DNA of 47,670 nucleotides from a virus (lineage: Duplodnaviria; Heunggongvirae; Uroviricota; Caudoviricetes), in the IMG/VR virus record IMGVR_UViG_2627853701_000003; one strand, written 5' to 3'. Below the pieces are notes generated by a model, which saw only the letters and a list, made by a program, of their open reading frames with translations, was not told where the DNA came from and did not search any database. Made by a program: the position numbers and the translations under genes. Below are positions 23,678 through 24,998 of this stretch, piece by piece (the first letter of the stretch is position 1; the number at the start of each line of letters is the position of its first letter).

Positions 23678-23857
23678 ATGACATTTCTGAACCAGTTAAT
23701 GCTGTACTTCTGTACGGTGGTCTGTGTGCTGTATCTCCTTTCGGGTGGATACCGGGCCATGCGTGACTTCTGGCGCAGACAGATTGACAAAAGGGCCGCT
23801 GAGAAAATCAGCGCCAGTCAGTCAGCCGGAAGCAAACCCGAAGAGCCGCTCATTTAG
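23678..23857 (+). CDS. small membrane protein (59 aa)
   Basis: MTFLNQLMLYFCTVVCVLYLLSGGYRAMRDFWRRQ...; one hydrophobic helix then a charged tail; below the track cutoff. Confidence 0.3.
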   Translation: MTFLNQLMLYFCTVVCVLYLLSGGYRAMRDFWRRQIDKRAAEKISASQSAGSKPEEPLI

Positions 23858-23897
23858 CGGCAACTTTCTTAATCACACCTTTCGACGAGAAAATCCC

Positions 23898-24143
23898 ATG
23901 TCAGAAATTACATCCCTGGTCACTGCTGAAGCAGTGAAGGAAGTCCTGCGCTCTGAAGAAGTCCGGAGCGCACTGAAACAGAAACTTCGCCATAACCTGG
24001 AAGCGCGTCTTGATGCAGAAGTGGATGCCATTCTGGATGAACTGCTGGGCGCACCGGCAGCTCCGGAGCCGGAAGGCATCGCGGGTGAGGGGAGTGCTTC
24101 AGATAGCGGTGACCCCACACCGGACAGCGACATGATGATGTAA
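23898..24143 (+). CDS. small acidic hypothetical protein
   Basis: 81 aa from ATG 23898 ([28 protein letters not shown]...); the track ORF starts earlier. Confidence 0.35.
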
Positions 24144-24220
24144 GCATGCGTCAGGGACCATCGGTGTGTGCCGGTGGTCTTTTTTATTGTTGTGAGCTTC
24201 CGGATTGCGGGAGACGGGGT

Positions 24221-24436
24221 ATGTACCAGATGGAAAAAATCACAACAGGTGTGTCATACACCACGTCAGCGGTGGGAACGGGCTACTGGTTCCTGCAGTT
24301 GCTGGACAGGGTTTCCCCGTCTCAGTGGGCGGCAATAGGCGTGCTGGGGAGTCTGCTGTTTGGTCTGCTGACGTACCTGACGAACCTGTATTTCAAAATC
24401 AGAGAAGACCGGCGTAAGGCGGCACGGGGAGAGTAA
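24221..24436 (+). CDS. holin
   Basis: 71 aa [71 protein letters not shown]: two hydrophobic segments and a charged C-terminus; resembles Stx2-phage S holin as recalled. Confidence 0.75.
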
Positions 24437-24440
24437 GGTG

Positions 24441-24998
24441 ATGAACCATGAAGAAATGAATCAGCGCTTCAGTCGTCTGGAAAATGAAATTGCTGAACTG
24501 AATAAAAAACTGTCGGCGCTGATGCCTTCTGAAGATGAAAAAAAACGCCGCGATGAGCAGTTTGCTGCGTTTGACGATTATTGTCGGAAAGTGATGAGCA
24601 GAAATCTCGCAGAGTGTTTCAGTATTCATAATGATAATTGCAGTGAGCTGGAATGGGAGTGTAACCGGCCATCCTTTGTTGTATCCGGTGATGACGGGAA
24701 AATCACCATATCAGAAAATGGAAAAGTAACACTGCCATCGCACCAGCACAGTGAGACGCTCATTGAATTTGCCATTGATTACCTGAAGAACAATAAAAAA
24801 CAGGGGCTGATGCAGCGCATTGGTCGTTGCATGGGGTATCTGCAGGTAGCCGCTGAGATTGAAGCGCTGGCCAGTGGTGCTGATAAGGATGCAATTGTGC
24901 GGGAGGCTCTTCTTCGTAATTTTAATACTCCACCCTTTAAAAAAGTGCCGGCTTACTGGCTTCATCCCGGACTGACTTATCTGAAAGTGCGTATTTAG
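24441..24998 (+). CDS. hypothetical protein inserted between holin and endolysin
   Basis: 185 aa from ATG 24441 (AAGGTG Shine-Dalgarno), 4 nt after the holin stop; no recognisable family. Confidence 0.45.
   Translation: MNHEEMNQRFSRLENEIAELNKKLSALMPSEDEKKRRDEQFAAFDDYCRKVMSRNLAECFSIHNDNCSELEWECNRPSFVVSGDDGKITISENGKVTLPSHQHSETLIEFAIDYLKNNKKQGLMQRIGRCMGYLQVAAEIEALASGADKDAIVREALLRNFNTPPFKKVPAYWLHPGLTYLKVRI

Follow-up and report, generated by a model that had tools for sequence, protein, structure and literature searches.

A short isoform of the long YdfR phage protein family lies between holin and endolysin in a defective Stx-type lambdoid prophage

The long 'YdfR family' proteins of phages (PHROG 1085), for example gp05 of the Stx2-converting phage 86 (YP_794052, 268 aa) and E. 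coli proteins of 287-296 aa, are encoded right after an S21-type holin gene and before the gene of a SAR lysozyme. They carry a DUF1327 domain of about 100 aa at the N-terminus, and many of them also have a middle insert of about 40 aa together with a convergent gene of 104 aa. YdfR of E. coli K-12 itself (Qin prophage, P76160, 103 aa) consists of the DUF1327 domain and a helix, and its gene fills the same slot, between the holin (essQ) and endolysin (rrrQ) genes of a lambdoid prophage. The only experimental data on the family come from this protein, which binds the N-terminal catalytic half of RNase E in two-hybrid and pull-down assays and co-purifies RNA (PMC13232886). A literature search for PHROG 1085 and the accession numbers concerned returned no functional paper, and published surveys of Stx-phage lysis cassettes leave the slot between the holin gene S and the endolysin gene R undiscussed.

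Optional late-region cargo between near-identical phages, as which we describe the gene below, is also represented by lambda bor and lom and by stx and nanS-p of Stx phages. The lambda genes bor and lom encode envelope proteins, and morons in the strict sense have their own promoter and terminator and are expressed from the repressed prophage in the lysogen. T4 RIII and P1 LydB, in turn, are small soluble proteins which are co-expressed with the holin; lysis proceeds without them, and they adjust its timing through protein-protein contacts.

Here we analyse the lysis region of a 47,670-nucleotide stretch of viral DNA (the window). The region belongs to a defective Stx-type lambdoid prophage, of which it forms the late, Q-dependent lysis end, and it holds a 185-aa accessory gene in the slot described above. 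The gene is the stand-alone short isoform of PHROG 1085, a mosaic, Escherichia-centred phage protein family. All reading frames that a first-pass annotation, made from the letters alone, had listed here (59 aa, 81 aa, holin, 185 aa and endolysin) were recovered at its positions, and the region comprises the following features:

23678-23857, plus strand: DUF1378 gene, 59 aa (Pfam PF07125, phrog_494)
23898-24143, plus strand: DUF826 gene, 81 aa (Pfam PF05696, phrog_311)
24153-24192, plus strand: terminator-like hairpin between the DUF826 and holin genes, a 13 bp stem followed by a T-run
24221-24436, plus strand: S21-type class II holin (pinholin), 71 aa (PF04971, phrog_9876/phrog_20 'holin')
24426-24443, plus strand: shared initiation site, with a Shine-Dalgarno sequence inside the end of S, TAA, 4 nt and the ATG of the 185-aa gene
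24441-24998, plus strand: 185-aa accessory gene, short isoform of the PHROG 1085 / 'long YdfR' family (phrog_1085)
24447-24626, plus strand: N-terminal helical hairpin/coiled coil of the 185-aa protein, aa 3-62 (AlphaFold helices 3-27 and 31-62, pLDDT about 77-90)
24663-24995, plus strand: C-terminal module of the 185-aa protein, aa 75-185 (three-strand beta meander and four helices, pLDDT mostly 82-97)
25036-25480, plus strand: SAR-type endolysin pseudogene, with a 2-bp insertion past codon 5 and its 3' end gone

The 185-aa protein is identical to RefSeq WP_001015158.1 (O157:H7 EC4115). It matches phrog_1085 with an E-value of 2e-111, limited to profile positions 117-296 of 296, and is therefore a family member without the N-terminal third. 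Over 98% of its length it is homologous to the C-terminal two thirds of the 287-296-aa DUF1327/"YdfR family" proteins, and its identity to long forms, spanning the helical hairpin and the C-terminal module, amounts to 83-91%. The DUF1327 domain, which the long relatives match at E 1e-34 to 1e-45, is absent from the window protein, which had no Pfam match at E 0.01 and no DUF1327 (PF07041) match even at E 1. K-12 YdfR shares no sequence with the conserved module of the 185-aa protein, and it belongs to the family to which this module is fused in other phages. Searches of Pfam, NCBIfam, PADLOC and PDB sequences with the protein or the family profile gave no useful match, the only hits being coiled-coil noise (occludin, Relaxase_C, ABC_tran_CTD). 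The earlier description of the protein as one of no recognisable family is thus accurate for these collections, but not for the PHROGs.

The highest Kyte-Doolittle value of the protein over 19 residues is 0.76, which leaves it without a transmembrane segment, and neither a signal peptide nor a lipobox was found; by these features it is a soluble protein. An AlphaFold run to which distant relatives had been added yielded a model with a pLDDT of 84, while a first run with 13 close homologues reached only 56 and was not used. The helical hairpin segment follows DUF1327 in the long forms and is also fused to other C-termini, for example in the 161-aa protein Stx2_14040, and distant relatives keep the C-terminal module only. 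This module is characterized by the motif KR[IL]GR[CSA]MG[LY]LQ[VL]AAEIEA ... PP[FL]K ... W..PG..YLK, and the window protein contains its defining elements (GR.MG.LQ.AAE ... PP.K ... W..PG..YLK) with every invariant residue in place. Across 32 sequences with identities down to 24%, G128, R129, L134, Q135, A137 and P165 are invariant, and no catalytic-type residue is found among the invariant positions of the family alignment. The Foldseek check proposed in the first-pass annotation retrieved nothing with an E-value below 0.1 from BFVD or the PDB, i.e. no viral or solved structure matched the model. Neither homology nor experiment points to an activity of the C-terminal module.

The architecture of the family comprises, in this order, an optional DUF1327/YdfR domain, the helical hairpin, an optional insert of about 40 aa and the C-terminal alpha/beta module. 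About half of the members (28+16 of 88 loci) are without DUF1327, and no architecture is more frequent in intact prophages than the short form seen in the window (28 of the 88 loci), which begins there at a conserved start of its own (MNHEEMNQRFSRLENEIAELNKKLS), at the junction with S. In Stx2 phage 86 and in loci of IMG/VR, the holin–endolysin slot is filled by long DUF1327 fusions. Family genes occur in multiple copies per genome, exchange domains and are found in prophages only. Middle insert and convergent 104-aa gene are both present in 35 loci and both missing in 47, with six discordant cases (raw counts, uncorrected for shared ancestry), and this co-occurrence persists although the N-terminal domains and the C-terminal tail alleles shuffle between the two states. 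The 104-aa partner (phrog_1853) is 42% identical in a distant locus, and in locus L014 a different reverse gene, of 95 aa, occupies its slot. Insert and partner are both missing from the window.

The 185-aa gene is closely joined to the holin gene. The holin matches Pfam Phage_holin_2_1 (PF04971) with 112.5 bits against a cutoff of 26 (E 9e-33), its homologue is named 'class II holin family protein' in RefSeq, and a dual start (M1/M4) is visible in the sequence; the profile match, the dual start and the pairing with a SAR endolysin are those of the S-type pinholin of phage 21, as which the protein can be classified on sequence grounds. In intact relatives, the gene downstream of the holin encodes an R21-like lysozyme whose N-terminus is hydrophobic. 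The ATG of the 185-aa gene lies exactly 4 nt past the holin TAA (24434-24436), as the first-pass annotation had reported, and a GGAG motif is located 9 nt upstream of it. In phage VT2-Sakai, which is without the 185-aa gene, an identical junction (GGGGAGAGTAAG[G/C]TGATG) starts the endolysin gene R; the 185-aa gene takes over the ribosome start site used by R in phages that do not carry it.

The hairpin upstream of the holin gene is the first listed of 14 terminator-like sites in the 4.9 kb scanned and has the longest stem of them (13 pairs), and we infer that it is a terminator read through by Q-modified polymerase. A crude consensus search of positions 21900-25600 detected no sigma-70-like promoter and no terminator after the 185-aa gene, and a weak internal promoter may be present inside S. 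Expression of the 185-aa gene is probably restricted to the late phase, because the gene seems to have no promoter of its own, lies behind the terminator-like hairpin and directly follows the lethal holin gene; late expression had also been proposed in the first-pass annotation and is implied by the position of the gene. The "classic moron position" claimed there is supported by the presence or absence of the gene between close relatives, but the gene probably falls outside the strict definition of a moron, because it starts 4 nt past the holin at R's start site and has no promoter-like site nearby. Unlike the classical morons with their own promoter and terminator, it is wired straight into the S–R junction, and its product is, unlike those of bor and lom, predicted to be cytoplasmic. 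A search of Rfam identified no RNA family within 23678-24998.

Any homologue of the 185-aa gene is present in 20 phage records, compared to 373 records with this cassette, and in 933W-like phages such as VT2-Sakai, S and R are 97-98% identical and joined directly. The gene is thus accessory cargo, since near-identical S and R genes occur with and without it between them, and it is dispensable for lysis as such. The comparison of lysis cassettes suggested in the first-pass annotation accordingly found a gene which is kept in relatives, yet missing from the majority of phages whose S and R are near-identical. At least a partial copy was detected in 878 of 5426 E. coli genomes, and the three small genes (DUF1378, DUF826 and 185-aa) are unchanged in hundreds of E. 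coli genomes. The dN/dS of the 185-aa gene against diverged alleles, 0.18-0.26, indicates purifying selection; because of this value and of the 100% identity of the gene to the copy in intact O157:H7 prophages, whose lysis cassette is whole, the reading frame is a real gene and not a chance ORF. A scan of GTDB genomes found the family in Escherichia and Shigella only, and a scan of IMG/VR recovered close relatives only. All three distant relatives (27-38% identity) with readable context adjoin a holin or endolysin of another family, namely a GH108 endolysin (L009), Phage_holin_2_3 (L011) and Phage_holin_2_1 (L012), and in these relatives the family gene is located upstream of the holin and not between holin and endolysin. 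Holin adjacency may here reflect position rather than function, with the surroundings of lysis genes being a general hot spot for cargo.

The best explanation we can offer, with low confidence, is that the 185-aa protein is a late-expressed cytoplasmic modulator which acts around the time of lysis. Its synthesis would be confined to Q-driven late transcription, alongside that of pinholin and endolysin, and would probably not occur in the lysogen. The helical hairpin would probably drive oligomerisation of the protein, and the C-terminal module probably binds another cytoplasmic protein. The likeliest role is that of a non-essential modulator at or just before lysis, which may adjust when, or how efficiently, pinholin and SAR endolysin bring about lysis, or may condition the host in the late phase of infection. 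T4 RIII and P1 LydB provide a functional analogy for such a modulator, and PDB sequence and Foldseek searches found no sequence or fold similarity between them and the 185-aa protein. Full versions of the system would add the DUF1327 domain and the convergent 104-aa partner, which seems to be paired with the middle insert, and the window may represent the minimal version.

The family could instead be a module for inter-phage competition or defence, acting by superinfection exclusion or abortive infection, in which the forward protein and the convergent 104-aa gene form the full system and the 185-aa form is a partner-independent variant or a partial system. Presence/absence polymorphism, mosaicism with domain swaps, multiple copies and restriction to prophages are all traits reminiscent of defence cargo, the convergent partner needs a promoter of its own and varies together with the insert of the forward protein, and the 95-aa reverse gene of L014 weakly matches the PADLOC candidate PDC-S51 (E 2.5e-5). 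However, PADLOC-DB v2 returned no match at E 1 for any of the three window proteins, and none for the long forms, the 213-aa forms or the 104-aa partner, except a marginal PbeC match in P0034 (E 0.018). Furthermore, expression in the lysogen, which such a function would call for, is hard to arrange for a gene that has no promoter-like site and lies after a hairpin and 4 nt past a lethal holin gene. No relevant paper emerged from a literature search for defence hot spots in the lysis regions of lambdoid phages, and we regard a defence function as unlikely.

Domain fusions usually point to a shared pathway, and natural proteins combine the C-terminal module with DUF1327/YdfR in one chain, or the two are products of neighbouring genes. 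The 185-aa protein might thus act in host RNA metabolism, as one half, effector or regulatory, of a YdfR-type system whose target late in infection would be RNase E or RNA and which might, for example, stabilise late transcripts, in keeping with the binding of K-12 YdfR to the catalytic half of RNase E and its co-purification with RNA (PMC13232886). DUF1327 is, however, missing from the window protein and from about half of the family, RNase E is bound through YdfR residues 1-72, to which nothing in the 185-aa protein corresponds, and overproduction of YdfR altered few transcripts (PMC13232886). We have rejected a transfer of YdfR's RNase E and RNA binding to the 185-aa protein, because the domain is absent, and consider a role in RNA metabolism quite improbable.

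We give equally little credence to a broader conjecture, in which the C-terminal module would be a new fold and would form, with the 104-aa partner and the optional DUF1327 domain, an unrecognised system travelling with the lysis cassettes of Enterobacteria. Such a system would respond to a cytoplasmic signal by setting the time of lysis, or serve phage-phage competition; the partner would dock on the insert of about 40 aa, and the partner-less 185-aa form would be a constitutively active minimal version.

The dual start of the phage 21 S gene encodes an antiholin. A missed core lysis component (antiholin, spanin, or endolysin chaperone or releasing factor) could be suspected in the 185-aa protein from its place between holin and endolysin, the common initiation site and the lysis-gene adjacency kept in distant relatives, but is very improbable, as most phages with near-identical S and R are without the gene yet lyse their hosts, S21-type pinholins supply their own antiholin, and the protein has no transmembrane segment, signal peptide, lipobox or match to a lysis PHROG or Pfam family, in agreement with the first-pass annotation, which had not seen a known lysis component in it.

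Judged by their profile matches, both small ORFs upstream of the holin belong to already catalogued families and are not orphans. The 59-aa protein matches PF07125 with 134 bits (E 2e-39, residues 1-59 on profile positions 1-59, gathering score 25 bits) and phrog_494 with E 1e-40, and the 81-aa protein matches PF05696 with 136.6 bits (E 3e-40, residues 1-75 on profile positions 1-75, gathering score 25 bits); because of these two Pfam matches, the ORFs are real genes and not chance frames. As the first-pass annotation had proposed, the DUF1378 protein has the hydropathy of a single-helix membrane protein, with one hydrophobic stretch (aa 3-21, Kyte-Doolittle value over 19 residues 1.98), followed by a basic tail (pI of the protein 9.2) that is probably cytoplasmic, and the DUF826 protein is acidic (pI 4.21; D+E 18 vs K+R 7), its N-terminal half being conserved and helical and its tail variable, acidic and rich in Pro. 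DUF1378 is represented by 23 distinct conserved alleles among related loci. The two genes come and go together (both in 33 loci, neither in 39, a partial set in one), DUF826 always starts 35-50 nt past DUF1378, and this optional unit of two genes is located between nanS-p and the holin gene. They do precede the holin, as the first-pass annotation stated, but they lie upstream of the lysis cassette rather than inside it, separated from the holin by the hairpin. A DUF1378-DUF826 fusion, an idea raised by phrog_8301, was ruled out by the different reading frames of the two genes in 38 of 38 loci checked, and the 139-aa ORF looks like an annotation artefact. The label "head completion protein", which DUF826 bears in some phage records, was rejected, as we found no support for it. 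No functional paper on DUF1378 or DUF826 emerged from the literature search.

The three genes adjoin the late operon (Stx/nanS-p/lysis) of the phages behind the danger of enterohaemorrhagic E. coli and are probably transcribed together with it, and a factor that shifts lysis timing or late expression would alter the amount of toxin and phage released. The gain from our analysis is one of bookkeeping: two "unknown" ORFs are DUF1378 and DUF826, and the third encodes what in the long YdfR family is a detachable C-terminal module. The domains of this family are now mapped, a candidate partner gene has been named and a structure without known relative has been predicted with confidence, which makes the family tractable for experiment.

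The prophage of the window is now incapable of lysis, and the three genes are for this reason probably unimportant to the present host. The nanS-p gene is frameshifted, Rz and terminase are gone, and the endolysin is decayed, as the first-pass annotation had recognised: alignment to the intact copies of EC4115, Stx2a_12E129 and phage 86 revealed that the 2-bp insertion at about 25053 shifts the frame, and Pfam Phage_lysozyme matches just a fragment. Such decay, and the restriction of the ORF to PHROG 1085 positions 117-296, could suggest that the 185-aa ORF is itself a functionless remnant of an N-terminally truncated long YdfR-family gene, which is scarcely credible given the conserved start of the short form and its prevalence in intact prophages, its low dN/dS and the identical copy in O157:H7 prophages with a whole cassette. 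The last position homologous to intact prophages is 25480, and the DNA from 25481 on is a 99.9% duplicate of capsid-region DNA at 31644-33815.

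We found that the 185-aa gene of the lysis region is a short member, new to annotation, of the PHROG 1085/long-YdfR family and not a new kind of element. The first-pass annotation had described lysis-cassette cargo, consisting of two small ORFs before the holin and a 185-aa protein of no recognisable family ahead of a decayed endolysin, and every element of this layout is real in both the ORF list and the raw sequence:

23678-23857: 59-aa ORF
23898-24143: 81-aa ORF
24221-24436: holin S, 71 aa
24441-24998, plus strand: 185-aa ORF, with its ATG 4 nt past the holin TAA and GGAG 9 nt upstream

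The lack of a family holds for Pfam, NCBIfam, PADLOC and PDB sequences, in which the protein had zero matches, but not for PHROG, where it matches family 1085 (E 2e-111) over only positions 117-296 of the 296-position profile. Among 5.8 billion proteins we found 165 relatives, all named ones being from E. coli or Shigella: 185-aa forms (91-96% identical); forms of 206-222 aa, in which ~28-43 aa are inserted in the middle; and forms of 259-296 aa that begin with a DUF1327 ("YdfR family") domain. Their alignment gives a modular order of DUF1327 or none, helical hairpin, insert or none, and conserved C-terminal module. All annotated E. coli copies occupy the slot between an S21-type holin and the lysozyme. 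The O157:H7 EC4115 copy (WP_001015158.1) is identical to the window's protein, while Stx2a_12E129 carries a 213-aa form and Stx2 phage 86 a 268-aa "YdfR family protein" (gp05) in this slot.

Further arrangements of the slot were also observed. Stx2a phage Stx2_14040 (locus L003, 2501-2986) encodes a 161-aa protein whose first ~62 residues are 95% identical to the window's helical hairpin and whose C-terminus is unrelated and has no family match, followed by ~500 bp of non-coding DNA before the endolysin. In E. coli 04-00955 (locus L014, 1501-2605; also L057 and L076) a DUF1327 fragment of 75 aa stands as a gene of its own behind the 185-aa gene, and next comes a different convergent gene of 95 aa (phrog_10490; weak match to PADLOC candidate PDC-S51, E 2.5e-5), a composite which shows that recombination has rebuilt the slot repeatedly. 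The DUF1327/YdfR domain, which the window lacks, is in two long relatives (P0006, P0034) weakly like YpeB PepSY domains (PDB 5boi, E 0.006), and one DUF1327-carrying member matches Pfam YPEB_PepSY1-2 (E 0.008). SleB, a spore cortex-lytic enzyme, has YpeB as its partner, and the likeness, if real, would suggest some connection with peptidoglycan hydrolases.

The setting is a stx-less Stx-type lambdoid prophage. The window carries a tRNA-Met/Arg/Arg cluster at 20835-21086, typical of the site upstream of stx in Stx phages, and no stx genes before nanS-p. The features between the tRNAs and the lysis region are:

21196-21388, plus strand: sRNA STnc100 (161 bits)
21389-21450, minus strand: sRNA AgvB (96.5 bits)
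21598-23543: nanS-p sialate O-acetylesterase gene (DUF1737 + SASA + DUF6645), frameshifted into 21598-22302 and 22251-23543; intact relatives are one protein of ~648 aa

Downstream, the endolysin is a pseudogene: compared with three intact homologues it has 2 bp inserted after codon 5, and its likeness to intact prophages stops at 25480. From 25481 onward lies a 2.17-kb second copy of capsid-region DNA, 99.9% identical to the copy at 31644-33815; as a result R has lost its end and the large terminase its start, and Rz and the small terminase are absent. This direct duplicate (25481-27653) comprises the 3' part of a protease/capsid fusion gene, a decoration gene and the next head genes, and abuts what is left of the endolysin at 25480/25481 and, at about 27654, the large terminase in mid-gene. 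In complete E. coli genomes, window positions 24900-29300 are matched only as three pieces across 9.2 kb, and the duplicate is either a true rearrangement in the strain sequenced or an artefact of assembly.

The 185-aa gene behaves as accessory cargo, as had been proposed, since it is absent from most phages that share the cassette: homologues occur in only 20 phage records, compared with 373 that match the region. In VT2-Sakai-like phages S and R, 97-98% identical to those of the window, abut directly. The S/orf185 junction GGGGAGAGTAAGGTGATG matches the VT2-Sakai S/R junction GGGGAGAGTAAGCTGATG, and the gene has thus been inserted onto the original initiation site of R; R itself comes next and has another leader. 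At least a partial copy is present in 878 of 5426 complete E. coli genomes, and at least 80% of the gene in 232. We consider it highly improbable that the ORF is a dead remnant, as its start is conserved, it is prevalent in intact prophages, and changes among the 185-aa-form alleles are mostly synonymous (dN/dS 0.18-0.26). An overlooked core lysis protein is just as hard to credit, given the gene's absence from most relatives that lyse. No promoter-like sites were found at 21900-25600, and a holin gene is not known to tolerate a constitutive promoter upstream; we therefore infer that expression of the 185-aa gene depends wholly on Q antitermination and comes late in the lytic cycle.

Searched with a family profile, 1.84 billion cluster representatives yielded only 43 proteins, about ten of them distant relatives (24-38% identity) that keep only the C-terminal module, most with a DUF1327-like N-domain. 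All three distant members placeable on contigs adjoin lysis genes of other families, preceding a holin-like gene, a GH108 endolysin and a lipoprotein in locus L009, a Phage_holin_2_3 holin in L011 and a Phage_holin_2_1 holin in L012. Each is followed by a convergent gene of ~100 aa, which is DUF1883 in L011 and L012; the L009 gene shares 42% identity with phrog_1853, the convergent 104-aa gene found behind the 213-aa and 268-aa forms of E. coli. Six residues are invariant among 32 sequences (G128, R129, L134, Q135, A137, P165), none of which suggests catalysis. AlphaFold reached a pLDDT of 56 with 13 close homologues, and of 83.7 (pTM 0.58) with 32 sequences including the distant relatives. 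In the model of the 185-aa protein, aa 3-27 and 31-62 form two long helices and aa 60-68 a disordered linker, while a compact module (pLDDT mostly 82-97) combines three short strands (aa 79-97) with four helices (aa 101-117, 123-144, 151-161 and 178-184). The protein lacks a hydrophobic segment (highest Kyte-Doolittle value 0.76).

The 104-aa gene (minus strand of loci L002, 5597-5911, L005, 2858-3172, and L009, 495-812; no Pfam family) co-occurs with the ~40-aa middle insert. In a set of 88 loci made up of the window, annotated records and 80 IMG/VR contigs, both are present in 35 and neither in 47, with 6 discordant, as raw counts that ignore shared ancestry. All four combinations of N-terminus and 3' end exist: hairpin start with neither (28 loci) or both (16), and DUF1327 with both (19) or neither (15). 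The coupling persists despite C-terminal tail alleles shuffled between the two states. This suggestive association points to the insert as a possible docking site for the 104-aa partner; the window and EC4115 have the minimal form without DUF1327, insert or partner.

Our tentative reading is that the 185-aa protein serves as a dispensable cytoplasmic modulator around the time of lysis. This reading is favoured by probable co-expression with the lysis genes, by a predicted soluble architecture that couples an oligomerising hairpin to a non-catalytic binding module, by dispensability for lysis, and by recurrence beside lysis cassettes of differing types. T4 RIII and P1 LydB share a common logic with such a modulator, without detectable similarity to the 185-aa protein. 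A competition or defence module formed with the 104-aa partner is unlikely, as there is no evident route to expression in the lysogen. A role in RNA metabolism could be drawn from YdfR, which binds the catalytic half of RNase E and co-purifies RNA (PMC13232886), but the RNase E-binding domain is absent from the 185-aa protein, making this role quite unlikely. The accessory-cargo observation stands and its interpretation is supported in part. The PHROG 1085 family is a reasonable low-cost target for lysis-timing work.

The 59-aa and 81-aa ORFs belong to uncharacterised families, DUF1378 (Pfam E 2e-39; PHROG 494) and DUF826 (E 3e-40; PHROG 311). In the former, the anticipated single hydrophobic helix (aa 3-21, Kyte-Doolittle 1.98) leads into a basic tail; the latter is acidic (pI 4.21), one half being helical and conserved and the tail variable, acidic and rich in proline. 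Both occur in top-ranked Stx phages and O157 prophages with the same cassette. They are gained or lost jointly (both in 33, neither in 39 and a partial pair in 1 of the 73 related loci with enough upstream sequence), are always 35-50 nt apart, and are followed by near-identical holins in loci with and without them. Their position before the holin is as described, but between them and it lies a strong hairpin followed by a T-run, resembling a terminator (24153-24192), which makes them upstream neighbours and not part of the lysis cassette. All three genes are catalogued yet uncharacterised accessory genes of Stx-type prophages, with identical copies in hundreds of sequenced genomes; in a prophage without endolysin, spanin and terminase, they are unlikely to be of much import to the present host.

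The literature on DUF1378 and DUF826 consists of passing mentions, one of which places both between nanS-p and S. A 139-aa ORF (23724-24143; locus L096, 528-947), annotated in some phage records and named orf43 in VT2-Sakai, overlaps the 3' part of DUF1378 in an alternative frame and runs in frame into DUF826. phrog_8301 seems to rest on this ORF, which is probably an annotation artefact; a DUF1378-DUF826 fusion was rejected, as the two genes lie in different frames in 38 of 38 loci. Between nanS-p and DUF1378, a minus-strand hairpin with a T-run (23543-23620) matches the EHEC sRNA Esr41 of Rfam weakly and below threshold (28 bits, E 0.03; gathering score 102), and may be a mere terminator or an unannotated antisense small RNA.
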